Part shown: positions 1 through 14,169 of the stretch, one piece after another | Layout: the number at the start of each line of letters is the position of its first letter | How positions within the stretch are numbered: position 1 is the stretch's first letter | Assembly (NCBI GenBank): GCA_003345545.1 | Contig: PRDH01000037.1 | Span: forward strand, 1 to 64,000 | Length of the DNA: 64,000 bases | Source of the DNA: Candidatus Thorarchaeota archaeon | GTDB taxonomy: Archaea > Asgardarchaeota > Thorarchaeia > Thorarchaeales > Thorarchaeaceae | Direction: 5' to 3' | Translations under genes and position numbers: made by a program | The notes under the pieces: model-generated | What the model saw: only the letters and a program-made list of their open reading frames with translations | The model's database searches: none | What the model was told of the DNA's origin: nothing

Positions 1-174
1 AGGTACGGCGAATCTGTCATGGGCACAGTTGAAGCGGGCAACACATTCACTCTGGAACTCTATGTCACAACGAAAGGCTATGGTCAGGTCAGTCTTGAGG
101 AAGATGTCTTAGTCACGAAGTCCGGCTGTGAATTCCTATCTAATCCCCAGAAACGGCTGATCTGTATAGGTTAG
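1..174 (+). CDS. M24 (Xaa-Pro peptidase-like) metallopeptidase, C-terminal fragment, 5' truncated by window
   Basis: Frame 1 translates RYGESVMGTVEAGNTFTLELYVTTKGYGQVSLEEDVLVTKSGCEFLSNPQKRLICIG*. FTLE...V.LEEDV.VT..G.E.LS is the typical M24 C-terminus. Not in ORF track. Confidence 0.75.
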   Translation, partial: RYGESVMGTVEAGNTFTLELYVTTKGYGQVSLEEDVLVTKSGCEFLSNPQKRLICIG

Positions 175-338: not shown

Positions 339-2180
339 TCATGACATGTACGGGTCCTCATGCACATCAATGTCGGCATACCCTGCGTCTTTGAGAAGGT
401 CCTCGATCGACTCGGCTCCGGTAATCCATGAGATACCCCAAGTATTGTCTTCTTTCAAACGCAGTTCGACATCAGGGAGGTCTCCAAGCAGATTATGGTC
501 CATCTCAATAGCATCTTGGTATGCTCCGACCAATGGAATTACAAAATAGGATCCTGGAACACTGTCCAGCACTCCCACAGGAATTCCTTTATCCATCTTT
601 CCTCCTGGCATCGTGACTGGTCTGTTGTCTTTTGTGAACCAGGTCTTCTCTGTGTGCTGTCTATAGAAGTCTGCTATCTCGCCGTCTGAATCGCATGTGA
701 TATCAACCAGTCTCACAGTGCTCTGCGGGTGAATGTGCAGGTCACGAGTTGGAATGACCGGGAAGTGCTGTTGAACCATTACGTGGTCAGCTATGCTGTT
801 GAATACACTGAAGTTCCCAATGACAATGTGTTCAGGATACCAGAAACTTCTCTCCAACTTGTCAGATGAATAAGTCGGTAAGTTCATCTCCCTGAGTCTG
901 GCTCTCACTGCTGTTTCCAGTTTTCCAACGACCATTTCTCTCACGTGTATGGCCTCGAGTCCCGCAAGAGTCATGCCTCCAAAACGCTCGTGGAATTCAT
1001 TCCAGAGACTGACCATTTTTTCGAGTGTGTTGGCATTGTGGATTCTTGTCAGATAGTCTTCCTCAGCTCGAGCGGTTTCCGATTCATGCGTGTCACCAGG
1101 GGTAGGAAAAACCGACCTGAGTTCGAGTGCATGAACGACAATGAGCGCTGCAAGGGCGGTAACAGCCCGCCCCGCTTCTATCATGATGTTTGGCTCTGGA
1201 TGCCTCTTGGAATCTCTCTCAATCTGTGCTTTTACTCCGGTGACAATATTGTAGGCATACTGATACATCAGGTCTGGGGGATATGAGCCAGCATAGTCGA
1301 TTGCCAAGCCTCCACCGAAATCTATGTTCTCCAAGTTTGATAGTCCCATCTCCCGGAGCTCAGAGTAGAGCTTGGTCAGGAAGCTGCCGAATCTTGTGAA
1401 TGCATCAAGGCCAGTGATCTGTGATCCTGCATGGCCAAGAATCGATTTAACCGATTCCGCAAAGCCTGACTGCTTCAACAGCTCAACAACATTGTAGAGG
1501 TCATGAATACTGAGACCGAATTTTGAGTCACGTCCTGTTGAATGGGACCAATGTCCCTCAACATTGAGGTATGGTTTGATGCGCAGTATCAAGTGTGTCT
1601 TTTGGGGTTTGAAATGCTTCACGACGAGTCGTGCCTCTTGTACTGATTCAATCGAGATTCCAATATTCCATCCACTGTCCATACTCGCTTGGATTAGTTT
1701 GAGGTACTTCGGGTCCTTTGTACCATTACAGACAATCTGGCGGTGTTTTTCGTTTTCTGTCAACTTCTTGATCAGGAGCAATTCAGGCTTGGTACCTGCC
1801 TCAAGGCCGTACTCCGAATCGGTTCTAATGACGGCTGTAACAAAGTCCTTGCGTTGGTTGACTTTGACGGGATAGATTCCAATGAATTTTCCTCTGTATC
1901 CCAACTCATCAAAGACTCGCTCAAATGATGCCTTGAGTTTTTTGACCTGATAGGTGATTAGCTGAGGTATGCGGAGTGTGAAAGACGAAGTATATCTAGT
2001 CCCATTCTCGCTCATGCTATTGACACTTCGGACTAATTCCTGGAATGTAATCCTGTGCTTACCTAGCTTGACGCATAGATTGCCATCCTCAGTGATGTCT
2101 AGGAAATGGAGGTCATTTCTACCCACTCCGAATACTGCCTTCGATTTCTCAGCTGACCAAATTTCTTCTGTCATCATCAA
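339..2180 (-). CDS. speA: Biosynthetic arginine decarboxylase (PLP, fold-type III)
   Basis: YPVKVNQ (PLP Lys), GLEAGTKPEL, SKFGLS, DFGGGLAIDY, DITCDSDG, GAYQD..HNLLG. Confidence 0.9.
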   Translation of the reverse strand: MMMTEEIWSAEKSKAVFGVGRNDLHFLDITEDGNLCVKLGKHRITFQELVRSVNSMSENGTRYTSSFTLRIPQLITYQVKKLKASFERVFDELGYRGKFIGIYPVKVNQRKDFVTAVIRTDSEYGLEAGTKPELLLIKKLTENEKHRQIVCNGTKDPKYLKLIQASMDSGWNIGISIESVQEARLVVKHFKPQKTHLILRIKPYLNVEGHWSHSTGRDSKFGLSIHDLYNVVELLKQSGFAESVKSILGHAGSQITGLDAFTRFGSFLTKLYSELREMGLSNLENIDFGGGLAIDYAGSYPPDLMYQYAYNIVTGVKAQIERDSKRHPEPNIMIEAGRAVTALAALIVVHALELRSVFPTPGDTHESETARAEEDYLTRIHNANTLEKMVSLWNEFHERFGGMTLAGLEAIHVREMVVGKLETAVRARLREMNLPTYSSDKLERSFWYPEHIVIGNFSVFNSIADHVMVQQHFPVIPTRDLHIHPQSTVRLVDITCDSDGEIADFYRQHTEKTWFTKDNRPVTMPGGKMDKGIPVGVLDSVPGSYFVIPLVGAYQDAIEMDHNLLGDLPDVELRLKEDNTWGISWITGAESIEDLLKDAGYADIDVHEDPYMS

Positions 2181-2206
2181 TACCCCTGTGTTGCCAGATG
2201 AACATG

Positions 2207-3667
2207 CTATGTTTCTTCGTCCTCTTTGATCGAGTCCAGCATTCCCTGGAATGCGCGTGCTAGCTCACCAATCTCATCGTCTTTTGAGATATAGGATTGG
2301 TCTACTTGCAGATCTTGCGTGTCAAGCGGTTGATCCTTGATTCTTGCAGCCGCATTTCTCGTTGCCAGATCCATCAGGTATTGCAGCGGCCGAGTCACTG
2401 TGTTTGCGACCGAAACTGCCACGATACCTGCTATGATGATGCCCCCAACCGTCACAAAGAGAATGAAGGCTGCAGCTTGGGCATTAGCAGCAAGTATTCT
2501 CTGTTGGAGGGGAGGAATGGCCTGCAGAACTTCATCAAGAGGAACTGCGATTGCGCAGATGTAGTTCCCCTTGCCTACAGGAGTGTAGACCAAGATGCGT
2601 TCAGTTCCATCCCGAGTGTACCTTAGGGCTCCCGATGCACCTGGAGCAATCATGGTATTAATCTGCGATTGAAGAAGTGCGGGGCTATCATCTTCGTTTG
2701 CCTCAATATTCACGAGATTGGGCAGTCCTGCTATGTACGCGGTATCTGGAACCTCGGGATGTGCAACCACAAGTCCATCAGAGTCAATGAGGAATGCATA
2801 ACCTGATTCAAGAACCTTGACATCGATTACTTTCGAACGGATATCCTCGATTGTGATGTCCCCTGAGATGACTGCTCGCGGCTGATAGTTCCAGTACACC
2901 ACCTTTCCGATCGAAATCAGGAGTACATTATCAAACTCGTCGTAATATGGTTCAACGAAGACAGTTTCGCCATCGCCTCCCCATATATCGCTATACCAGT
3001 CCTCGCCTCTAGGATCGTAAGGGTCCGTGTTTCTATCTGAGTCAGTACCCGCAAGTATGCTACCTGGGTAGTTGATGAATAGTCCATCATCAGCAAATGC
3101 GATATAGAGCCATCTGAATTCAACTTGGTCATGAATCGCCTTGAAGATGTAGTCCATATTAGAAACGCGACCAAGCTTGTCACCGCTTATAGGATCAGAT
3201 TCATAGTCATCGTAGTTCGTTGAGTCCGTACCTGAAACGTACCAGCTGCTGTACGTCCAGGATACATTGAGTCCATAATTGTCGTCATACGCACTATCGG
3301 CTGGATCAGGTGCGACTGTGTCATTCTCAAACAGAAGGTCATAGTAGACGATTCGATTGGCATATGTTGAACCACCATCGAATAATGCCTGCAATTCCTC
3401 AGCTGCCGCTTCGATCATTCCCTGTGCGCTTGACAACTTCTGATGAATCACCAATGCTGTCTTCTGGGCCGTCTGTTCCATATTGGTCTGAATCTGGGTT
3501 TCGAGCGCAAGTGAACTCTGGTCCCTTGTGAATCCACCTATGATGTCCACAAAGGTAAGCGAAACAAATCCGGTCACTGAGAGCGACAGTAATGATATCA
3601 CCAAGAAGGTGAGAATCACGTTTGTTCTGAATTTTCCTTTTTTCTTGGTCTGAGTTGTGAGTGACAT
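2207..3667 (-). CDS. Membrane receptor: TM - double Cache - TM - HAMP, no output domain
   Basis: N-terminal TM; YDPRGEDWY...EPYYD...ISGD; GYAFLIDSDGLVVAHP; second TM; HAMP VTRPL...DEIGELARAF, then stop. Confidence 0.85.
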   Translation of the reverse strand: MSLTTQTKKKGKFRTNVILTFLVISLLSLSVTGFVSLTFVDIIGGFTRDQSSLALETQIQTNMEQTAQKTALVIHQKLSSAQGMIEAAAEELQALFDGGSTYANRIVYYDLLFENDTVAPDPADSAYDDNYGLNVSWTYSSWYVSGTDSTNYDDYESDPISGDKLGRVSNMDYIFKAIHDQVEFRWLYIAFADDGLFINYPGSILAGTDSDRNTDPYDPRGEDWYSDIWGGDGETVFVEPYYDEFDNVLLISIGKVVYWNYQPRAVISGDITIEDIRSKVIDVKVLESGYAFLIDSDGLVVAHPEVPDTAYIAGLPNLVNIEANEDDSPALLQSQINTMIAPGASGALRYTRDGTERILVYTPVGKGNYICAIAVPLDEVLQAIPPLQQRILAANAQAAAFILFVTVGGIIIAGIVAVSVANTVTRPLQYLMDLATRNAAARIKDQPLDTQDLQVDQSYISKDDEIGELARAFQGMLDSIKEDEET

Positions 3668-3683
3668 CTCTTCATCTACCTCC

Positions 3684-6539
3684 TTAGTAATCTACTGTTG
3701 TTCCTCCAACTTCGAGCTGTGCCATTAGCACGCCTACCTTGTCAAAGGCTTTCTCGATGTCCATGCGAACGTCGATACTATCGACCACTGACAAGTATTG
3801 CCCCTGTGGTATATTGTTGCAGATCGAATCGAGGAGTTCCTCGGTGGTCATCTGTTGTCCTGTCTTGGGCGAGCGCACTCTCTTTCCGTCAACTGCTGCC
3901 TTTAGTTCTTCACCAACGCCGATCACTATGAGATTCACGTCAAGATGGTTATCACGGATGAATCCCTCGATTGTCAACTTCCTCCTTCTCTTCAGACGGT
4001 CATTCTGAGTGAATATGCCTTCTAGCGCATCGAGAGAATATGTCTTCGAGCTGTTGTCCTGACCATCAGACAGTGCGATGACCCACCGATGCTCGCTCGA
4101 CTCTATTTTGTTCAATTCCTCCAGAGCCCGACCCAACGCGTCGTAGAACGCAGTTGCATAATTGGGATACTTCAGAGCATCAAGAGCTCGAACAATAGGG
4201 CTTTCGTCTTCGCCGTATTCGCCCTTGAGAGTGAGGGGCAAAACCTCGCGATATGTGGTATTGAAGATTATAATCGACACAGCATCCTGTGGATTCACTT
4301 GGCTACGGAGGATTTCTCTTGCTCCGGTAACAGCTGCCTTGATCCTCTGCTGTGCCTGCATGCTACCTGAGTAGTCGATCACAAAGGTAACGCTCTTCTT
4401 GTATAGAATGGAGCGCCTAAGCCTCTCAGCTTTCCTTCGAACATCATGACTCGGTTTGTTCAACTGGTCTAGAACATCAGCAAGCCGCTGCATGGCGAAA
4501 ACGACGAGCCACAACTCATCAGTTGCTTCTCCAAGCTTGACTGCATCACTATAGGACTTCTCCGCTTTTTTCCAGTTGCCTTGAACCTGGAACAGCTCAC
4601 CCTCGTGATAACTGATGTAAGCCAAGCTTCTCTCATAGTTGATGGATTTCGCAGTCTCTTCTGCCTCACTGAAACGAGACTGGGCTTGACTGTATCGGCC
4701 ATCCTTCATGAGAACAAGTCCCATGGCGTCATAGCGTCTGGCCAGGCCGTAGGCATTCTTTTGCGTCATGTCAATAGCTTGGGCATCTTCAAGTAGCTTC
4801 ATCGCGGCCTCAAAATTGCCACGGTCCATCTCCACGAGCGCCATGTTGTGATAGATAGACGCGATTCGGGTCATGGCATCCTTCTCATCGGTGCCGTCTT
4901 CCTTGGCTCTTTCGAGTAGCTTGTTCGAGATGGTCAGTGACTGGCCATAGTAGTCTATGGCATTCGCTGTGTCACCACGCTGTCGGAAGACATTCCCAAT
5001 GTTCAGCAGCATTGTCTGTTCTCCCGCTTCAATCTTCAACCTTCTGCTGATCTCTAGTAGATTCTCATAGTTGGCAAGTGCCCTCCTGAGGTCTCCACGT
5101 ATGAATGCTTGATTTCCGAAACGCATTGCCTCCTGGAAGCTTAGCAGAGCATCGACCGTGGTCCCCACTTCTTCGTACATTGCCCCCGCAGTCGTTACAC
5201 CTCTTGTGAAGTCTTGTCGAGCCATCTTCTGTACTAGACGGGTCATCTCGGTTATTGGCTCGACCACAGCTCTTCCTCGTCTAGTTGAAACAACGGATAC
5301 AACAGCTGCCACGGCAATCAAGATGCCACCAAGCACAGCAGTAAGGATAAGCGTTCGAGTTGCCACAAGATTGAGAATGTCTATTGCTGGTGCAATGACA
5401 TCAGATTCCGGCACCACGACAGCTAGTATGTAATTAGTGCCCTTGATCTGTACAAAAGCCATGTGCCAAGTGTTAGCATTCTTTTGATACTCAAGTAGTC
5501 CTGACTCTTCACCAATTACTTGCGTTGTCAAAAGGTTCCTGAACGCTATAGCTTCCGAAGTCACGTTTCCAAACTCGAGTATCTCGATGGGTGCGACCTC
5601 TTCATCCAGGGATTGGTCCTTGTGGGCAACAACATTTGCAGAAGTGTCTAGCATGAAGGCATACCCATTCGTCGACACATTCAGATTCAATACTCTGTCA
5701 AGTACTGTTGCCATCGTGACGTCTGCGGACACAACACCGATGAGCGTGCCATTATCGTATCTCACGGGTCTGCCCATTGATATGACCAGGCCGACTGGGT
5801 CGACATATGGTGCAGTGAGAATGACGCTGTCATTGCCAGGTGCGATGGTGGCCACATTTGTGTACCATTCTTGTGCATTGGCATCATAGTCTAGGCCAGG
5901 TCCATCGTAGTTAACAAAATAGCTCAAGTCATCAAAGGGATAGTTCTTGAAGAGATGCTGGTCAGACACTCCTAGGTCATATCCCATGTAGAGCCACTTG
6001 TAGTCCTCATTCATCTCGTGAAGCGCTTTGAAGATGTTGATCATATTTGACGAGTAGTCAAGAGCAACCTGGGTGCTTGGGGAGAAATCGTGTGGGTCAT
6101 TGTTGTTCCATTCAGAGCGTGGAATGAAGTAGCAATCGGCTGCAAAGGAGATGAATTCCGATTCATAGGCTTCGACAATTTCGTCATCTGTTTCGAATGT
6201 ACCCAAAAGATCTGACCATTGAGGTTCTTCACTAATGTTCCAATAATAGCTATACTGTGGAGTTGCTGAGATCCTGCCATTGAATAGATCTTCGCAATAA
6301 GCCTCCAACATATACACTCCATCAATATAGCTCTTCCACCTCTCTTCAATGAAGAGAGCAGTATCGTTTGAGAGTCTCTGGAGGTTGGCCAATTCCTCGG
6401 CCTTCAGTGCTGAAGCAGCATCCCCTGCATTGGCATTTGAAACTGTGAATATCTCACCCACTGACAGAGCCGAGATTACCAGCATCGGCACCAGCGCGAC
6501 AACCACGAACGTAACAACGATTCTTCTCGAAATGTCCAT
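3684..6539 (-). CDS. Membrane receptor: TM - double Cache - TM - HAMP - TPR repeats - VWA
   Basis: YDANAQEWY...APYVD...VSAD; GYAFMLD; HAMP; TPR helices (NIGNVFRQRGD..AIDYY, HNMALVEMDRGNFEAA); VWA with MIDAS DYSGS...T...SDG. Confidence 0.85.
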   Translation of the reverse strand: MDISRRIVVTFVVVALVPMLVISALSVGEIFTVSNANAGDAASALKAEELANLQRLSNDTALFIEERWKSYIDGVYMLEAYCEDLFNGRISATPQYSYYWNISEEPQWSDLLGTFETDDEIVEAYESEFISFAADCYFIPRSEWNNNDPHDFSPSTQVALDYSSNMINIFKALHEMNEDYKWLYMGYDLGVSDQHLFKNYPFDDLSYFVNYDGPGLDYDANAQEWYTNVATIAPGNDSVILTAPYVDPVGLVISMGRPVRYDNGTLIGVVSADVTMATVLDRVLNLNVSTNGYAFMLDTSANVVAHKDQSLDEEVAPIEILEFGNVTSEAIAFRNLLTTQVIGEESGLLEYQKNANTWHMAFVQIKGTNYILAVVVPESDVIAPAIDILNLVATRTLILTAVLGGILIAVAAVVSVVSTRRGRAVVEPITEMTRLVQKMARQDFTRGVTTAGAMYEEVGTTVDALLSFQEAMRFGNQAFIRGDLRRALANYENLLEISRRLKIEAGEQTMLLNIGNVFRQRGDTANAIDYYGQSLTISNKLLERAKEDGTDEKDAMTRIASIYHNMALVEMDRGNFEAAMKLLEDAQAIDMTQKNAYGLARRYDAMGLVLMKDGRYSQAQSRFSEAEETAKSINYERSLAYISYHEGELFQVQGNWKKAEKSYSDAVKLGEATDELWLVVFAMQRLADVLDQLNKPSHDVRRKAERLRRSILYKKSVTFVIDYSGSMQAQQRIKAAVTGAREILRSQVNPQDAVSIIIFNTTYREVLPLTLKGEYGEDESPIVRALDALKYPNYATAFYDALGRALEELNKIESSEHRWVIALSDGQDNSSKTYSLDALEGIFTQNDRLKRRRKLTIEGFIRDNHLDVNLIVIGVGEELKAAVDGKRVRSPKTGQQMTTEELLDSICNNIPQGQYLSVVDSIDVRMDIEKAFDKVGVLMAQLEVGGTTVDY

Positions 6540-6603
6540 CTTCCCTTTTTCACCTACAGTGCTGAATTATACCTACACGCAATAACATCTTTGCCTCTCT
6601 TTC

Positions 6604-8058
6604 CTACCCCGCTTGAGCCCTCAATTCCTCGATCAGCTTGCCAACGAAGTATTCCATATCCGTCTTCTCACTTGGAATGAATCGCTCTCCTTCAAATGTT
6701 CCCTTAACAATGCCCTCACCTAGAAGGATTATCAGAGTCCTTCTGAGGATTGTTCGATCTACACCCGTCTGCCTCTCCATACGAGCGACATCCACACTGT
6801 CAGTCTCTTTGAGCAGATTCAGCAATGTGGTTTCGATATTGTTGATATCTTTCTCTCCAATCTTGACCGACTTCTTACGCTTCTTGAACTCTGTCCTAAC
6901 AAACGTGCTACCATCCAGATGTCCGTCTATGGCTTCGCTCTTGATCATAGCCTGCAGGCTCCTGCGCAGGTTATAGGCTGCAGGTCTGGGCAGTGTCTTT
7001 CGAAGAATCCTGTCTAGGTCCTTCAACTTGATCTGGTTGTGCTTTGAGGTGATCGAATCTATGCTCTCCTGGATGTATTCCTCAATGACGTATTCTTCAA
7101 TCAACTGAAGAGGTGCTCCGCAAGCTGCACACTCTGATGCCTCTGGCGACGTTGGAGCTCCACAGTTGCCACACTTTATTGCCCTACGATACAGTATCTC
7201 CTTGGTTGAGCCAATCTGTTGAAGAATCACTCTCTCGCTTCTCGATGCCTTCCCTGACTGCTCAACTTCCCAGAAGCTGAGTCTGTTGTCCTTCGTGCTC
7301 ACCACAAGGTAAGCGATATCTGAGATCTCATCAGGCACGCCTGTTGCCATGGCGCGTGGAACATCGCTCTCCTCAATCTGTGCAATCTCATTGCCGTCAA
7401 TGTCCCAGACTCGGAGAATGGGCGTCATATCCCCTGTAACGAAAAGCTTTCTCTCTTCGAACGACAGAACTGCGAAGACTGTAATCTTGTCGCCTAGCTG
7501 AAGTTCACGCAAGAAATACCCTGCAGAGGTCAGTATGCTCACTTTTCCAGTCATCTCTGCAATGACAACCTCAAGCTCATTATCAGTCGTGATGTCCTCA
7601 AGCCAAACATCTGATATGGGCTGATTCACATTCCTTGTGAAAATCGCATCCTTGTCATCGTTATACAGGATGACTCTGTTGTTCTCCAAAGCGACAACGA
7701 CTTCAGCTGCGTCATCACCGTCAACATCCCGGGCATCGCAAGCAACTACATCACTCTCAAGGTTGATGTTCCAGACTGTGCTGCCTCGATGATCTACGAC
7801 AAGGACCTTCTTGCCGACGCCGCCCACCAGTGAATCTTGGCCTTCTCCTTCGACATCTGCAACGGCAATACATCTGACCTTGCTGCTCCATTTTCGCGTG
7901 CTCGTGAGAGCACCCGTTGCGTCGAAGACACGAAGCCTATCGCCATAGTCTAGCGAGAAGACCTGCGTGCTAGCGTCTCTTCTCTGTCGGACATAGACCG
8001 AGTATACATTTGACACAGTGGGTACACTCGCAACCTCGCGAATCTTCAAACCGCTCAT
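6604..8058 (-). CDS. FG-GAP/WD-like beta-propeller + double zinc ribbon + two PCI/UFL1-like winged-helix domains
   Basis: Repeats ADVEGEG, RDVDGDDAAEVVV, EDITTDNELEVVI; CGNCG..ECAACG; two WH-like ends (AIDGHLDGSTF, IVKGTFEGERF). Start moved to ATG 8058 to avoid overlap with the divergent gene. Confidence 0.7.
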   Translation of the reverse strand: MSGLKIREVASVPTVSNVYSVYVRQRRDASTQVFSLDYGDRLRVFDATGALTSTRKWSSKVRCIAVADVEGEGQDSLVGGVGKKVLVVDHRGSTVWNINLESDVVACDARDVDGDDAAEVVVALENNRVILYNDDKDAIFTRNVNQPISDVWLEDITTDNELEVVIAEMTGKVSILTSAGYFLRELQLGDKITVFAVLSFEERKLFVTGDMTPILRVWDIDGNEIAQIEESDVPRAMATGVPDEISDIAYLVVSTKDNRLSFWEVEQSGKASRSERVILQQIGSTKEILYRRAIKCGNCGAPTSPEASECAACGAPLQLIEEYVIEEYIQESIDSITSKHNQIKLKDLDRILRKTLPRPAAYNLRRSLQAMIKSEAIDGHLDGSTFVRTEFKKRKKSVKIGEKDINNIETTLLNLLKETDSVDVARMERQTGVDRTILRRTLIILLGEGIVKGTFEGERFIPSEKTDMEYFVGKLIEELRAQAG

Positions 8059-8112
8059 AGCACCTTCTTCAGCATTGTTGCATATCCATATAAGTTTGCT
8101 AGGCCTCCAAGG

Positions 8113-9195
8113 ATGATGATGAGAAAAGCTGCCAAATGCAGTGTCGGCTTTCTTTGGAGTCCCCTTCTCGAAACCTTTGACTTTGGAAAGAAACATCCTA
8201 TTCGAGTGGGACGCTTCAAGATGATACATGACTTTGTGGAAGAGCAAGGCTTCCTCGATCTACCCAGTGTCCGAGTCATCACTCCTGAACCATTGTCTGA
8301 AGAACTATTGAGAGTCATTCATGCTGAGGGTTACATCGCGAGTGTTCAGAGAATCTCCGAGTCTGGTGTCGGCGAGATTGACATCGATACGCCGGGATTC
8401 AAGGGGATTTACACCAATGCACGAATTGTCTCTGGTGCATCGGTCACGGGAGTCAAAGCAGTTCTATCAGGTGAAATAGACCACTTTGTTTCACCCACGG
8501 GCGGGTTCCATCATGCCATGTATGAACATGGGGGTGGTTTCTGCATCTTCAACGACGTCGCAGCCTGCGTCTATGAACTGAAACAGAGAGGTGTCGAGAG
8601 AGTCCTCATAGCTGATTTCGATGTACACCATGGTAACGGAACTCAGGAGTATTTCTATGATGACCCCGGTGTGATGCAGATCTCTTTTCATGAGGACCCT
8701 GAGTGGATGTATCCTCATGATGGTTTCATTGAAGACATTGGGGCGGGAGCAGGTCAGGGATTCAACATTAACATGCCTTTTCCAATGGACTCTGGCGACG
8801 AGGTCTACAGATATGCCTTCGATAGACTAGTGCCCAAACTAATTCACTACTACAGACCTCAGTTCATCCTGTTCATACCTGGCTTCGATGCGCACTATTT
8901 GGACCGACTTGCTCACCTCAAACTGACCACTGATATGACTCGCTACATAACGTCGGGGATTCATAGGGCTGCTCATGATTACTGCAATGGAAAGATGGGC
9001 GCTATGACTGGGGGCGGGTATCACCCAGATTCTCTACTGTGGGGCATCGGAACTGTGATATCAGAACTCTCCGGAGCTCCCTATGACCCCCCTCCACAGA
9101 AGGCTCCATTCAAAGATAACAAGGAAACATGGGATGAGGTAAAGGCCAATGTTGCCAGATTGGAGGAATTGGTCTTCCCGATTCTTGGTATATAG
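8113..9195 (+). CDS. Histone deacetylase-family Zn deacetylase (AcuC/acetylpolyamine amidohydrolase-like)
   Basis: HP, GGFHHA, GFCIFND, DFDVHHGNGTQ, GFDAH..D, GGGY. Confidence 0.92.
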   Translation: MMMRKAAKCSVGFLWSPLLETFDFGKKHPIRVGRFKMIHDFVEEQGFLDLPSVRVITPEPLSEELLRVIHAEGYIASVQRISESGVGEIDIDTPGFKGIYTNARIVSGASVTGVKAVLSGEIDHFVSPTGGFHHAMYEHGGGFCIFNDVAACVYELKQRGVERVLIADFDVHHGNGTQEYFYDDPGVMQISFHEDPEWMYPHDGFIEDIGAGAGQGFNINMPFPMDSGDEVYRYAFDRLVPKLIHYYRPQFILFIPGFDAHYLDRLAHLKLTTDMTRYITSGIHRAAHDYCNGKMGAMTGGGYHPDSLLWGIGTVISELSGAPYDPPPQKAPFKDNKETWDEVKANVARLEELVFPILGI

Positions 9196-9197
9196 TT

Positions 9198-9830
9198 TCA
9201 GTCTGTTTCTGCTATCAATCTACGTGCCAAATCTACTGCACTCATGGCATCTTTCCCAAACGCATCTGCGCCGGTGTAGTCCACAATGCTCTGGTCGATA
9301 TCTCCCCCGCCAATCATGACCTTCACTTTTTTCCTCATGCCTGCCTGTTTGAGCGCAGCTATGGTCTTCTTCATGATATCATGTGTCGTCGTAATCAGAC
9401 CGCTCAGGGCGAGAACCTTAGCATTTGTTTCTCTTAGTTTCTCAACGAACTTCTCGGGGGCGACGTCTTCGCCAAGGTCATGAACTTCAAAACCATTGGA
9501 CTTCAAAAAGGCGACAACGAGGTTCTTTCCGATATAGTGTATATCTCCTTGTACAGTACCGATGACGATCTTCCCACTATAGCTCGATTTCTGAGCTGAC
9601 AGCAGGGCCGGCTCGAGTTTCTCCATTGCTCGTTTGAATACATCAGCTGACATGACGAGCTCTACGAGAAAGTACTCATTCCTTGAGAATCTTTCACCAA
9701 CAATGTCCATCCCTTCTTTGAGTTGACCAAGAATTGTGTGCGGGTCTGTGCCATTTGAGAGGTATGTTTCAACGAGACGAAGTACCCGTTGGTCATCGAT
9801 GTCTGCCATAGCTGTAGCAAGTTCGGTCAC
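9198..9830 (-). CDS. Corrinoid (cobalamin-binding) methyl-carrier protein, MtaC/MttC-like
   Basis: N-terminal cap GMDIVGERF..EYFL.EL; DIHYIGKNLV (DxHxxG); LSGL, IGGG, GADA. Confidence 0.9.
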   Translation of the reverse strand: MTELATAMADIDDQRVLRLVETYLSNGTDPHTILGQLKEGMDIVGERFSRNEYFLVELVMSADVFKRAMEKLEPALLSAQKSSYSGKIVIGTVQGDIHYIGKNLVVAFLKSNGFEVHDLGEDVAPEKFVEKLRETNAKVLALSGLITTTHDIMKKTIAALKQAGMRKKVKVMIGGGDIDQSIVDYTGADAFGKDAMSAVDLARRLIAETD

Positions 9831-9898
9831 TTGATTTGATGCCTCCAGATGTAGTTTTGAACGCCTAAGAGTAGGAACGATGTATCATATATCTTTCC

Positions 9899-11491
9899 TC
9901 ATACCAGCGCGATTGAATCAAGAAACACACTCTGGAAATCTTCGTGGGCCGCAAGGTCAACGTGCCTCGTATCCCTGGCTATTCTCTCCGCTTTAGCCCT
10001 GCTTTCCAATGAGAGCAGTAGTCCTTTTGCGCCCTCTCCAGCAGCGTTTCCTACTGGGATAATCTGCGATATGTCAACTCGTGGCAGAAGGCCAATGGTC
10101 AGAGCACTCTTTGGGCTGATGTAGTTTCCAAACGCTCCTGCAAGCAGCACTCTATCTATATCTGGGACTCCTAGACCGACTTCTTCTAGCAGGAGTCTAG
10201 TTCCTGCTTGGATAGCTGCCTTTGCAAGCTGTACCTGCCGAACATCCTTCTGAGTGAATATGATACGCTTCCTCTGCTTCGGTTCATCGGACTTCCAGAC
10301 ACGATAGAACAGTCCTAGCTTCTCGTTACTCTCGACCATTGGACTTCCCTCGAGTATTCTCCCCGTAGTATTGATGAGCCCTGCTTGTTTCATCTCAGCA
10401 ACAACGTCCACAATTGCCGAGCCACAGAGACCTTGAGGAGCGACGTCGCCAATCACAGTGACTTCGGCTTGTGAATTTGCATCGTGAATGATAACATGCT
10501 CTATTGCGCCTGTCTGACCTCGCATGCCGTGGTGGATGCTGGCTCCTTCGAATGCGGATCCTGCTGCCGCTGAGCAGCAAACTAGTTCTCCATGATTTGA
10601 GAGTACGATCTCTCCGTTGGTTCCGATGTCTATTCCGATCGTAACATCGTCAGTAGAATCGAGCTGCTGTGAAAGGATAAACGCTACTGTGTCTCCTCCA
10701 ACAAATCCTGCAATATTCGGTGCCACATAGAGCTCGGTACTCTCTCCAATGTGCAAGTCAATGCTGCGTGCTCTCTGTGTTACTGCATTGTATATCTTGG
10801 GTGCGTATGGTGAGAGTCCGAGAGATGTCACGTCAGTCCCCAGTAGCAGATGGCCCATGGCTGTATTGCCGACGACAGCGACTCTTGTCACTTCGGCTGC
10901 ATCGACCCCAGCCGCCTGAATAAGTTGAGTGGCAAGTTGATTGAGCTCATTCACGACTCTGCGCTGAAGTACCTTGGCCCCGTTTTCTTCACGCATTACA
11001 TGAGTGATTCGAGACATTATATCGTCCCCAAAGACGTTTTGGGGGTTCAGCGATGCGGCTCGAGCCAGCTGTACTCCGTCTGAGAGATCAAGAAGAAACG
11101 CAGCAATAGTTGTCGTTCCGAGGTCGATGGCTATCCCAAACTGCCCATTCAGACTCGAATCGAGTTCCCAGTGTCCTGCAACTCCTTCTGTGAGAATCTT
11201 TGCCTCTTCTGCACGCTGTGGAAGAATGACTCTGATCGCCCTTGATGTCTTATGCCTGCACGCCAGTCTGGCTCCCTTGCCTAATTCAGTCACAGGAATC
11301 TTCTCAATGTCCTGTCGAGTTGGTCTTCCTGCTGGCTCAACAAAGACGTGACACTTGCCGCATGTTCCTCTTCCTCCACACTCATTTGTGATGTGAAGTC
11401 CGACTTCTCTTGCTGCATCCAGAATTGTGAATGATGCATCTGCTGCCACTCGTAGGCCCGACGGTTCGAATACCACGAGGCGTTTAGGCAT
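9899..11491 (-). CDS. Reductive activator of corrinoid proteins (RACo/RamA-type ASKHA ATPase with N-terminal 2Fe-2S ferredoxin)
   Basis: CGGRGTCGKC...RLAC; IDLGTTT; GFVGGD; IDIGTNGE; GLCGS; QLAKAAI; AGAFG; GNAA. Confidence 0.92.
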   Translation of the reverse strand: MPKRLVVFEPSGLRVAADASFTILDAAREVGLHITNECGGRGTCGKCHVFVEPAGRPTRQDIEKIPVTELGKGARLACRHKTSRAIRVILPQRAEEAKILTEGVAGHWELDSSLNGQFGIAIDLGTTTIAAFLLDLSDGVQLARAASLNPQNVFGDDIMSRITHVMREENGAKVLQRRVVNELNQLATQLIQAAGVDAAEVTRVAVVGNTAMGHLLLGTDVTSLGLSPYAPKIYNAVTQRARSIDLHIGESTELYVAPNIAGFVGGDTVAFILSQQLDSTDDVTIGIDIGTNGEIVLSNHGELVCCSAAAGSAFEGASIHHGMRGQTGAIEHVIIHDANSQAEVTVIGDVAPQGLCGSAIVDVVAEMKQAGLINTTGRILEGSPMVESNEKLGLFYRVWKSDEPKQRKRIIFTQKDVRQVQLAKAAIQAGTRLLLEEVGLGVPDIDRVLLAGAFGNYISPKSALTIGLLPRVDISQIIPVGNAAGEGAKGLLLSLESRAKAERIARDTRHVDLAAHEDFQSVFLDSIALV

Positions 11492-11499
11492 CTGATCAC

Positions 11500-12405
11500 C
11501 TATCCGATTCTGAACCTTGGATGCTGCCTGTCCGGTCTAATGCCTTCTTCTAGAAAGACGCCTGATAGTGCAGTGTCAATCATCGCAATGGACGGGAATA
11601 CAATTGGCGCGTGCCTGATTGGACCGTAGAGGACAAAGTCAGCTCCAAGCACGACAGGCATGAGACTGGAACCAGCAAGAGCTACATCCCTGGCTTCCCT
11701 ACCAAACTTCGGCACAAGTCCGACCCATGTATTCACTGCATTGTGAGCTCCACACCCTACCGGAAATCCCAACTTATCTTTTGTATCTCGCAAAGCCTTG
11801 CATGCGATACCAAGCGTCAGCATGTCTACAACCCCTGTGTCAATCATTATGTTCTGAATTCCGATTGTCAGAGACCTGTTCAGCAATTCTTCGGCAATCC
11901 TAAGCCTCTTCTTCGAAGAAGCCATGGACTCGCTGTCAAAGGCCAGAACAACTGCGTTCTTCAGCCCCAGTCCATGCATTTCTTCGAGGATGCTAGGATC
12001 AGTTTCCGGAACTATGGAATTGAGGACAACTCGTTCCATTATTCCAAGCTCGGATGCTCTCTTTAATCCCGCCAGATTCACTTCATTTGAACCCGAGCCA
12101 TCGATAAGCAGAGGCATCTCTGTGATATCGGAGAGGAGTGAAATGTACTGTTTCATGGCATCTGGCGTGGCACCGACGACATCTAGCATACTGGGGAGAC
12201 CGGTAGCATCAGATATCTTTGACAGCTGTTCGATGGCTTCTTCTACCTTAGATCGTTGTACTGTTCCCTTCTTGGGATCCTGCACAAGCTTGTCCTTGCT
12301 GTAAAAAACGGAGCCAATGAGGACTGTTGGAGTGAGTCCGGGCTGCCCACCAATCTTGACACGCCCTATTTCGAGGGTCTTCTGAACTGCTGAATAGTGA
12401 TACAC
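11500..12405 (-). CDS. mtrH: Tetrahydromethanopterin methyltransferase subunit H-like (MtrH/MtgA)
   Basis: IGGQPG..PTVLIGSVFY, GFPVGCGAHNA, GADFVLYGPI, HP at C-terminus. GTG start at 12405 follows a CAGGAG RBS. Confidence 0.85.
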   Translation of the reverse strand: MYHYSAVQKTLEIGRVKIGGQPGLTPTVLIGSVFYSKDKLVQDPKKGTVQRSKVEEAIEQLSKISDATGLPSMLDVVGATPDAMKQYISLLSDITEMPLLIDGSGSNEVNLAGLKRASELGIMERVVLNSIVPETDPSILEEMHGLGLKNAVVLAFDSESMASSKKRLRIAEELLNRSLTIGIQNIMIDTGVVDMLTLGIACKALRDTKDKLGFPVGCGAHNAVNTWVGLVPKFGREARDVALAGSSLMPVVLGADFVLYGPIRHAPIVFPSIAMIDTALSGVFLEEGIRPDRQHPRFRIG

Positions 12406-12702
12406 ACACTTGGTCTCCTGTGCTATGCACAGACATTCAATTGTGCCTTTAAGCACACAGGTTCTGCCTGAACCTCATATGCCAAGGAGAAGCTCGATAC
12501 TTGCGGCATACTTTGAGGACTTACTGTGGTGGTTCATCAAGAAGAGTCTAATCTGGTCCAACCAAAGATGTGAAGTTTGGTGCTTAGCTGGGACTCGCCA
12601 AGTGAATAGGAAGTGAATTATCCCAGATAGCTTAACAAGCATACGGTCATGATTAGACGAACTCGAGGACACGGAAGCGTCATATGTGGGGTCTGATTCA
12701 TC

Positions 12703-14169
12703 ATGTCAGGCAAAGCAGGAAAGCACACTAGCAAGAGATCTGTGGATCATCAAACAATATCCATTGATCAAGGCTATGTTCTTACTAGTAGTACCCTCAA
12801 TACTATTCTTGGAATGTCTCCGAGTGGCGTTGTTGTGGTAGGCAGCGACTTCATTATTGAGTATATCAATGAAAAGGGCTGTGAGATTTTTGGTGGTTCC
12901 CGTAGAGATTTGGTCGGCCATGATTTCAGAGATTTCTTACAGAAAGACACAGTCCAAATGATGGCGGAGCGCTACCAGCTTCGGAGGAAAGGCAAGAAAG
13001 TACCTTCTACCTACCTATTTCATATCATCCGCCGCGATGGTGTGGACCTAGTAGTGGAGGGGAATGCTGATGTGTCCAAAGGTCCGGATGGAAATCTAAG
13101 AACAATCGCCCATTTCTTGGACATCACTCAGATTCAGCGACGACAAGAGGAACTTGAGCAGTCGCAGACGCGATATCAGACTCTTGTCGAAACCATGAAC
13201 GAAGGCCTCGTCATCGATAATAGTGAAGGAATTCTCACTTATGCAAACGATGCCTTCTACAATATGATTCATAGCTCTCCAGCTGCCATCATCGGAAAGC
13301 CCTGGAATTCGCTGGTCCCTGACATGAGCATGGACCGCATCAAAAAGCAAATCGAGGCGCGCAAGAAGGGCGTATCTGAACGATACGAGATGACTTGGAA
13401 GACCACCACAGGAGCCTTGGTTCCAACCATCGTTTCCGCCAAACCACTCTTTGGCCGGAATGGTGATTTCCTCGGAACTTTCGCGATAGTCACAGAGATC
13501 AAAGCGCAGAAAGATGCAGAAGAGACCATTCAGTTCTACCTTGATCTCCTATCTCATGATGTAGCAAATCAACTTCAAGTCATAATGACAAGTAGCGGCC
13601 TCCTCGAGGAAGAGGTACCACAGTCGTATGTTGATGATGCAGCAAAGAACATCTTAGATGCAGTCGAGCGCTGTAATCGGCTCATAACCAAGGTCAAGAG
13701 AGCTGCTCAAATCCGGGAAGTCCCGATTTCGAGCGTTGAGCTGACGCAGGCTCTTTCTGAGAAAATCGGTGTGCTCGAGAAGGTCTATGCTGCTAGAGTG
13801 CATTTTGAAGAACCAAAGAGGGCGGTCATGGTTGAAGCTGACATCCTATTAGGAGAGCTTCTCTGGAATCTACTTGAGAACGCCGCATACCACAATCCCG
13901 CTGAGCATAGAGAAGTCTGGGTCTCCATAGAAGCAAAGAGCGAGTCTGTTGAACTCTCAATAGCTGATAATGGTCCTGGAATAAGCGATGCGAGAAAGAG
14001 AGATCTCTTTGCTGAACGAAAATACGGCAGTGGTGTAGGTCTAAGACTTGTCCGTCAAATGATCCGCAAATATGGCGGCTCAATCGAGGTCGAAGACCGA
14101 GTGAAGGGCAATTCTAGTGAGGGGTCCAAGTTTGTCGTTACCTTAAGAAGGTCAAGGAAAGGCAAGTGA
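12703..14169 (+). CDS. Cytoplasmic PAS-PAS sensor histidine kinase
   Basis: Two PAS domains; H-box SHDVANQL; N-box NLLENA; DNGPGI; GSGVGL. Confidence 0.92.
   Translation: MSGKAGKHTSKRSVDHQTISIDQGYVLTSSTLNTILGMSPSGVVVVGSDFIIEYINEKGCEIFGGSRRDLVGHDFRDFLQKDTVQMMAERYQLRRKGKKVPSTYLFHIIRRDGVDLVVEGNADVSKGPDGNLRTIAHFLDITQIQRRQEELEQSQTRYQTLVETMNEGLVIDNSEGILTYANDAFYNMIHSSPAAIIGKPWNSLVPDMSMDRIKKQIEARKKGVSERYEMTWKTTTGALVPTIVSAKPLFGRNGDFLGTFAIVTEIKAQKDAEETIQFYLDLLSHDVANQLQVIMTSSGLLEEEVPQSYVDDAAKNILDAVERCNRLITKVKRAAQIREVPISSVELTQALSEKIGVLEKVYAARVHFEEPKRAVMVEADILLGELLWNLLENAAYHNPAEHREVWVSIEAKSESVELSIADNGPGISDARKRDLFAERKYGSGVGLRLVRQMIRKYGGSIEVEDRVKGNSSEGSKFVVTLRRSRKGK

Follow-up and report, generated by a model that had tools for sequence, protein, structure and literature searches.

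Two Cache-type receptor genes and a gene for a SpeA-like, probable arginine decarboxylase are kept together across lineages of Asgard archaea. We describe this association from a stretch of 64,000 nucleotides (nt; the whole stretch is hereafter called “the window”) of contig PRDH01000037.1 of a Candidatus Thorarchaeota archaeon, at the left end of which four genes in the same orientation encode a propeller and winged-helix protein (PropWH), a long and a short receptor (CacheL and CacheS) and the decarboxylase. We consider it very probable that this cassette is a functional unit. Our composite reading, for which we judge the case to fall slightly short of evenly balanced, is that an amine-binding hetero-oligomer of CacheL and CacheS relays its signal through docking by TPR and VWA domains, tuning the synthesis of agmatine or polyamines by SpeA. 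The dCache_1 sensor type and the principle of amine sensing through loss of an arginine are already known; new are a TPR-VWA receptor that is paired and enzyme-free, and the conservation among Asgard archaea of its coupling to SpeA. In the literature on Asgard arginine decarboxylase and on Asgard proteins with Cache and VWA domains, we found nothing on the cassette.

The list of open reading frames (ORFs) gives, between positions 339 and 9195 of the window, four ORFs that run together on the minus strand and a fifth, divergent one on the plus strand. First in the cassette, as elsewhere in Thorarchaeota, is PropWH (6604..8058, minus strand; 484 amino acids (aa), with a TTG-extended frame that reaches 8247), followed by CacheL (3684..6539, minus strand; 951 aa), CacheS (2207..3667, minus strand; 486 aa) and, as the last gene, the SpeA-like fold-III pyridoxal phosphate (PLP) decarboxylase (339..2180, minus strand; ~611 aa). 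The intergenic gaps are 64 nt (PropWH/CacheL), 16 nt (CacheL/CacheS) and 26 nt (CacheS/SpeA). An earlier interpretation made from the letters of the window without database searches (hereafter, the sequence-only reading) had described this layout, including the divergent gene of the HDAC family, and the ORF coordinates confirm it. The short gaps in the window and the 4-nt overlaps in genome G032 are compatible with a single transcript. A scan for bacterial promoters and terminators, which is not applicable to archaea, returned counts at chance level.

Evidence for a unit comes from gene order. The sequence-only reading had joined the receptors and speA in one locus and had named an unconserved gene order as grounds for refutation; its proposal withstands this check, as the pair and speA occur together across Asgard lineages. 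The long and short Cache genes are always adjacent in 61 related genomes, and the pair is present in 33 of the 36 genomes of the family to which the window belongs. Wherever the contig is long enough, Thorarchaeota loci show the complete order PropWH-CacheL-CacheS-speA, even at identities as low as 38-47%. At 29-42% identity, CacheL, CacheS and speA are still contiguous in G051 (a member of another family), in metagenome-assembled genomes (MAGs) labelled Hermod or Heimdall and in a MAG labelled ‘Bathyarchaeia’, one contiguous case outside Thorarchaeota spanning a contig break. The place of PropWH is filled in other lineages by a small AbrB-like or RING-like gene upstream or by a propeller gene downstream. 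Two more families have speA in divergent orientation and still adjacent to CacheL (loci L125, L130, L132, L137, L138). Our Asgard survey sample comprised 301 genomes, of which 97 have the receptor pair and 100 have a SpeA homolog; counting coordinates, about 80 of the 100 SpeA genes lie beside a receptor pair or at matching contig ends. A functional link between the receptor pair and SpeA is thus supported.

Such a pattern could in part reflect descent. If a bacterial-type speA was once acquired beside an existing receptor pair, the neighborhood might have been inherited without any function; SpeA-type arginine decarboxylases are unusual in archaea and in this phylum are nearly confined to lineages with the pair, and the SpeA-linked pairs form one clade, so that one ancient event could explain much. 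We regard this as quite unlikely, because the trio has stayed together at ~30-40% identity while its flanks turned over fully (the flanking genes outside Thorarchaeota are entirely different), because adjacency survived the inversion to a divergent arrangement, and because in G032 the cassette has moved as a block and stands on a different contig with other flanks.

Two candidate features of these loci were set aside. Open frames of 1101-1146 aa in three genomes (G103, G109 and G066) looked like a fusion of CacheS with SpeA; all three have a stop codon between the genes, and the CacheL stop is normal. At the Hermod-type loci L030 and L067, speA stands 6 kb off, after a gene for a major facilitator superfamily (MFS) transporter of the lactate/oxalate-formate type, and the transporter of Hermod YT1_014 was rejected as a polyamine exporter on account of that NCBIfam assignment.

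CacheS consists of a transmembrane (TM) segment, a dCache_1 domain, a second TM segment and a HAMP domain, with nothing after the HAMP. It belongs to the dCache_1 family by its Pfam score (PF02743, 71.4 bits versus a cut-off of 45), and its HAMP domain (PF00672) scores 26.0 bits versus a cut-off of 25. The AlphaFold2 (AF2) model has a predicted local distance difference test score (pLDDT) of 79 overall and 85-93 in the ectodomain, and compares with solved dCache_1 ligand-binding domains at TM-scores of 0.7-0.77 (target-length normalized); its nearest folds are amino-acid dCache_1 domains. The dCache_1 match of CacheL, at 40.1 bits, falls under the cut-off of 45, yet the protein is 28% identical to CacheS (E 5e-33). 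After its second TM segment, CacheL continues through a HAMP-like linker into TPR repeats and then a VWA domain (VWA_2, 47 bits), in which the metal ion-dependent adhesion site (MIDAS), D722-S724-S726...T796...D825, is invariant in 41 of 41 CacheL sequences. Of the Cache-HAMP-TPR-VWA layout that the sequence-only reading had claimed for this protein, the Cache, TPR and VWA parts stand; the HAMP part is not confirmed, its match amounting to 13.2 bits (E 0.11) over the first half of the profile only. The same reading had noted a lack of kinase, methyl-accepting chemotaxis protein (MCP) or cyclase output, and our search of Pfam and NCBIfam profiles likewise found none of these domains in CacheS or CacheL.

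PropWH is a cytoplasmic protein with weak propeller and Zn-ribbon profile matches only (Pfam and NCBIfam). Its AF2 model (pLDDT 85, predicted TM-score 0.82) places a propeller at ~aa 1-267 and adds to it a Zn ribbon of the form CxxC...CxxC and a pair of winged helices, and its fold matches are generic propellers only. In the Hermod-type loci L030 (G057) and L067 (YT1_014), CacheS carries a C-terminal extension with a Zn ribbon and HEAT repeats, so the otherwise “output-less” short receptor can bear a docking module of its own.

A comparable domain set is found in the eukaryotic alpha2delta and CACHD1 proteins, which, like CacheL, hold dCache_1 and a VWA domain with MIDAS in one chain, and alpha2delta chains appear among both the sequence and the fold matches of the receptors. 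The arrangement differs: alpha2delta retains the Arg and has its VWA inside the extracellular Cache domain, as an insertion, whereas the VWA of CacheL is C-terminal and cytoplasmic.

The ligand pocket can be read against that of PctA, in which Y121, R126 and W128 contact the ligand's carboxyl group and Y144 and D173 its amino group; a 61-fold loss of affinity follows from R126A and a complete loss of binding from D173A (Gumerov et al. 2022, PMC8915833). In CacheS, the corresponding motif is YDPRGEDWY at aa 217-225, which HMMER aligned to YDPRKRPWY (PDB 6iop) and YDPRRRPWY (PctB), so that Glu222 falls at the position of PctA Arg126; the predicted pocket residues are Y217, E222, W224, Y225, Y241, D243 and D270. 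CacheL has YDANAQEWY at aa 218-226 and predicted pocket residues Y218, Q223, W225, Y226, Y245, D247 and D273, with Gln223 at the Arg126 position. PYYD in CacheS or PYVD in CacheL, and then the distal Asp (D270 and D273, respectively), follow downstream. These are the motif strings and the replacement of Arg by Glu or Gln that the sequence-only reading had pointed out, and they are present in both receptors, with the amino-group residues kept. Measured against the motif of amino-acid receptors (dCache_1AA: Y121-R126-W128...Y144...D173), both proteins lack Arg126 and retain the other positions.

The change is conserved in SpeA-linked orthologs, which never have Arg or Lys at this position and mostly have Glu or Asp. 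Among 30 CacheS orthologs, the residue is Glu in 12, Asp in 15 and Gln in 3; in CacheL orthologs, it is mostly Glu, or else Gln, and is basic in 0 of 38. The residue that follows is usually acidic too in CacheL orthologs, as is position 223 in CacheS. Conservation at the Y129, Y144, D146 and D173 equivalents is complete in the 30 CacheS orthologs, the Y241/D243/D270 triad included, and complete or nearly so when the CacheL orthologs are counted in. A retained Tyr/Asp/Asp site combined with Glu, Asp or Gln in place of the carboxylate-binding Arg suggests that a carboxyl-free, cationic amine is probably bound. An amine-type ligand is supported, and overall we would weigh it evenly against any other kind. 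Our best guesses are agmatine, putrescine or another di- or polyamine of that kind, while the narrower claim that the ligand is specifically agmatine or putrescine seems to us possible and somewhat doubtful.

The nearest structural neighbors of CacheS are dCache_1AA receptors (PctA/PctB/PctC, Mlp24/Mlp37, Tlp3 and CtaA), which have the same fold and share its TM-dCache_1-TM-HAMP layout. Five of the six positions of their motif are kept in the Asgard receptors (the equivalents of Y121, W128, Y129, Y144 and D173). The Asgard receptors differ from them in having Glu, Asp or Gln for Arg126, in lacking an MCP, kinase or cyclase output, and in forming a conserved pair of one long and one short protein.

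Precedents for amine binding exist in two groups of sensors. In McpU of P. putida and TlpQ of P. aeruginosa, a Tyr/Asp/Asp triad holds the primary amine of putrescine or histamine in a negatively charged pocket; agmatine is bound at 0.15-0.5 uM, and dissociation constants (KD) for putrescine and agmatine are sub-micromolar to micromolar (PMC6234866). This triad corresponds to the PYxD...D of CacheS and CacheL, and the McpU/TlpQ pocket too is acidic, its second-nitrogen contact being made by a Glu. Unlike CacheS and CacheL, the two are MCPs with larger ligand-binding domains. We know of no genetic linkage of their genes to SpeA.

The second group, the dCache_1AM amine sensors (PctD, PacA, McpX and M. 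mazei 3LIB), derives from amino-acid sensors through loss of Arg126 (Cerna-Vargas et al. 2023, PMC10589655). PacA has Gln in that place, dCache_1AM domains keep the W/Y pair and the distal Asp, and archaeal members exist, Halobacteriota being the only archaeal phylum reported (PMC10589655). The AM_motif consists of the F188/Y189 aromatic pair, hydrophobic M215, S217, D235, an upstream insertion with R103/D133 and the cation-pi residue W155; dCache_1AM domains did not bind putrescine or agmatine (PMC10589655). Limiting the comparison to the positions that this motif has in common with the amino-acid motif (the W/Y pair and the distal Asp), we find these present in CacheS and CacheL. In both sequence and fold searches, 3LIB was a weaker match than the amino-acid receptors. 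The idea of the sequence-only reading that the pocket suits a decarboxylated amine therefore has precedent, in the published Arg126-loss sensors as well as in McpU and TlpQ, and it is partly strengthened by these and by the conserved loss of Arg.

Receptor pairs that retain the Arg offer a comparison. The relatives returned by a wider search with the CacheS ectodomain are numerous and fall into the same pair of length classes; Glu, Asp or Gln occupies the Arg position in the closest of them, and the more distant ones mostly have Arg, with roughly 66 Arg-type representatives in all. In family f24 (three genomes), the pairs have Arg in both proteins and do not stand beside speA, and the genomes have PdaD and no SpeA. 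The second CacheS gene of G252 (L126) also keeps the Arg and is not beside speA. The Arg-type loci L133, L139 and L140/L141 (G294, G297 and G132) show the full amino-acid motif YDPRxRxWY. A propeller gene lies directly downstream of the pair in L133 and L140, the f24 loci examined for a downstream gene. The Arg-type pairs probably represent the same enzyme-free receptor in a form that senses amino acids. In a quick FastTree of both paralogs, whose support values were not examined, the Arg-type pairs are basal, followed by family f9 and then by one large clade with all SpeA-linked pairs, and the branching of the CacheS subtree mirrors that of the CacheL subtree. On this quick tree, the SpeA-linked pairs would derive from Arg-type ancestors.

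The last gene of the cassette is probably an arginine decarboxylase, judging from its profile and structure matches. It matches Orn_Arg_deC_N and, over its full length, NF003763 (349 bits versus a cut-off of 369; TIGR01273, 334 versus 624), and its alignment with the SpeA structures 3NZP, 3N2O and 3NZQ runs from one end to the other. Against solved SpeA structures, the YPVKVNQ Lys, HxGSQ, GGGLAIDY, EAGR, DITCDSDGEI and VGAYQ motifs are intact. The SpeA homologs are mostly labelled ‘hypothetical protein’ in NCBI. The genome, which is 93% complete, has this one SpeA homolog and one agmatinase-like gene elsewhere, and we found in it no PdaD (the pyruvoyl arginine decarboxylase) and detected no spermidine synthase or AdoMet decarboxylase. 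PdaD is present in most other families of the phylum and in 0 of the 36 genomes of this family. SpeA also stands in for PdaD in five more distant cassette genomes, and only G051 has both enzymes. Archaea need agmatine for the agmatidine of tRNA-Ile. With SpeA the only detected arginine decarboxylase and PdaD absent from the family, SpeA is most likely the housekeeping source of agmatine and not a dedicated signal synthase, and its replacement of PdaD makes feedback on supply likelier than a dedicated signal.

Genome G028 points the same way. Here, speA is intact and the decayed receptor genes survive as fragments interrupted by stop codons, which speaks for supply control rather than an autocrine signal. 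Between speA and the HDAC-family gene of this genome (L118, ~6985-7454 on G028:C7) lie a CacheS remnant (aa 345-484, with stops) and a PropWH remnant (aa 32-71), which we take to mark a recent loss of the receptor genes. Together, the sole detected decarboxylase, the absence of PdaD from the family and the survival of SpeA beyond the receptors in G028 weaken the role in signal synthesis that the sequence-only reading had given to SpeA.

That role belonged to an autocrine or quorum loop, in which an amine made by SpeA would be exported, sensed by both receptors and removed by the HDAC-family enzyme. Genes for synthesis and reception do sit in one cassette, and since G051 keeps PdaD in addition to the cassette SpeA, housekeeping there does not depend on the cassette copy. 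Such a loop nevertheless appears decidedly unlikely to us: in this and almost every other cassette genome, SpeA is the sole arginine decarboxylase detected, archaea require agmatine for tRNA-Ile, speA is kept where the receptors decayed, no exporter is conserved in the cassette, and the HDAC-family gene is unlinked.

A second, more divergent type of SpeA (33-40% identical) occurs without a Cache pair in some Thorarchaeota genera and one other family (G183:C126:7594-9363, G069, G136, G157, G180, G227, G031 and G068:C1:1149645-1154383); it is a tandem duplicate in G068, and G183 has both types. In Heimdall-type cassette loci, a LysA-like fold-III PLP decarboxylase of ~470 aa, below NCBIfam cut-offs, lies downstream of speA (L068 6281-7726, L069 10403-11797, L115 ~3784-4131 and L131 10612-11616). 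We considered it as a carboxy(nor)spermidine decarboxylase and rejected this, as it is LysA-like, below cut-off and matches nspC at only 30-39 bits.

In the composite reading, CacheL and CacheS, as ancient paralogs, would most likely form one hetero-oligomeric transmembrane receptor, whose ectodomain pockets, descended from those of an amino-acid sensor, would bind an extracellular amine that is cationic and has no carboxyl group. The signal would then pass through the HAMP domain or HAMP-like linker to the TPR-VWA arm with its intact MIDAS, with no enzyme inside the cell, and the arm would dock a partner, either PropWH or possibly SpeA itself. As the outcome, the agmatine or polyamine made by SpeA would be matched to the supply of amine outside. 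The sequences show the gene anatomy, the conserved pocket residues and the linkage to speA; what class the ligand belongs to, that a heteromer forms, which partner is docked and which way control runs are our inferences. A bolder version, in which an enzyme-free receptor-to-scaffold system born in Asgard archaea controls their only agmatine route by ligand-gated docking of a propeller/winged-helix adaptor or of SpeA, strikes us as rather doubtful. On that version, a lineage close to eukaryotes, with the domain set of alpha2delta (Cache and VWA), would use ligand-gated docking in place of phosphorylation or second messengers.

Several observations weigh against the composite reading. Pairs of family f9 have Asp at the Arg position without speA nearby, and G261 has two pairs, a Glu-type pair beside speA and another, with Asp, that lacks speA nearby; an acidic pocket is therefore not specific to SpeA linkage. 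In this sample, loss of the Arg is necessary but not sufficient for linkage to SpeA. The Hermod-type lineage has 6 kb between the receptor pair and speA, which is upstream. SpeA also occurs without receptors in G028, G031, G069, G157 and G068, so it is not dependent on them. The comparison with Arg-type pairs rests on about two independent lineages, and the order of events on the quick FastTree described above. Finally, McpU and TlpQ are outside the 50 nearest folds of the CacheS model, and TlpQ Glu170 is at most a putative counterpart of CacheS Glu222.

The second pair of G261 (L124, G261:C1:1726000-1745000) has Asp in CacheS and Arg in CacheL at the key position. It is divergent from genes for a class I/II aminotransferase and an AMP-binding enzyme, which occupy the same relative place as speA beside the first pair of that genome; with such neighbors, these receptors as a family are not bound to a single pathway. 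These neighbors, the existence of Asp-type pairs without speA and the fact that acidic pocket residues also suit metals and other cations would fit a stress response, in which the pair senses a metal cation, pH or another cationic or neutral molecule and the synthesis of agmatine or polyamines, or the consumption of protons, is the response. The invariant equivalents of Y144, D146 and D173 argue instead for a primary-amine ligand, and every one of the closest folds binds amino acids or amines, so we hold a stress response to be unlikely.

Should the composite reading be right, the ligand class of a Cache sensor would be predictable from one motif change and a gene neighbor, and a transmembrane receptor would have protein-docking modules as its sole output. 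It would also mean that the supply of agmatine or polyamines is regulated in Asgard archaea, where agmatine is needed for AUA decoding. A whole Asgard family has swapped the archaeal pyruvoyl arginine decarboxylase for a bacterial-type SpeA that travels with a receptor pair, and the Arg-type and acid-type pairs make up a natural series for the comparison of ligand binding.

To the right of the cassette, an HDAC-family deacetylase (8113..9195, plus strand; Hist_deacetyl PF00850, 259 bits) is separated from PropWH by a divergent intergenic region of 54 nt (8059..8112), in which we read one TATA-like element, ATATAAG/CTTATAT, that may act as a promoter. Its inclusion in the system as an acetylpolyamine deacetylase could be argued from this close divergent arrangement with one shared element, from the ortholog that adjoins the cassette in most Thorarchaeota genera (and speA in G028 and G031 after receptor loss), and from the six paralogs in the genome, which make specialization likely. 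Its placement elsewhere tells a different story. A backbone of HDAC, PAS kinase, radical SAM and PsmA genes is retained in G036, a genome that lacks both cassette and SpeA, and the same backbone in G032 has its HDAC gene ~1.1 kb from the gene for an M24 peptidase, with the cassette on another contig; the four-gene cassette thus behaves as a block between the M24 and HDAC genes. The HDAC gene is also absent from the cassette loci of other Asgard families.

The protein itself has the HDAC fold and lacks the features of an acetylpolyamine deacetylase of the HDAC10/APAH type. Among solved relatives it is closest to HDAC6 and bacterial HDAH, and neither APAH nor HDAC10 is among the 60 best. The gatekeeper of HDAC10 is a Glu seven residues after the third Zn ligand; our alignment shows Leu at this position, as in HDAC6 CD2. 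A place for this enzyme within the system therefore seems very improbable, and we judge the gene to be a positional neighbor outside the functional unit. The turnover arm of the sequence-only reading finds no support, given an adjacency that is positional (G036 and G032), the six paralogs and the missing polyamine-deacetylase signature. The six HDAC-family (PF00850) genes lie on contigs C78, C17, C81, C44, C37 and C27; this is many for an archaeal genome of 2.7 Mb, and the C27 copy is apparently split or frameshifted.

The other neighbor of the cassette is the 3' end of a gene of the M24 family (Xaa-Pro peptidase-like, a family assigned by eye) at window positions 1-174 (plus strand), convergent with speA and kept in most Thorarchaeota loci. 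Convergent with the HDAC-family gene is a corrinoid methyltransferase set (9198-12456, minus strand), made up of a B12-binding corrinoid protein (9198-9830, minus strand), a RACo reductive activator (9899-11491, minus strand) and an MtrH-like methyltransferase (11500-12456, minus strand), beside which we saw no substrate-specific methyltransferase. These genes were considered as a hint to a methylamine ligand and discarded, being variable within Thorarchaeota and absent from the cassette loci of other families. Further along, at 12703-14169 (plus strand), the window encodes a cytoplasmic PAS-PAS histidine kinase (HATPase_c) that forms part of the HDAC, PAS kinase, radical SAM and PsmA backbone.

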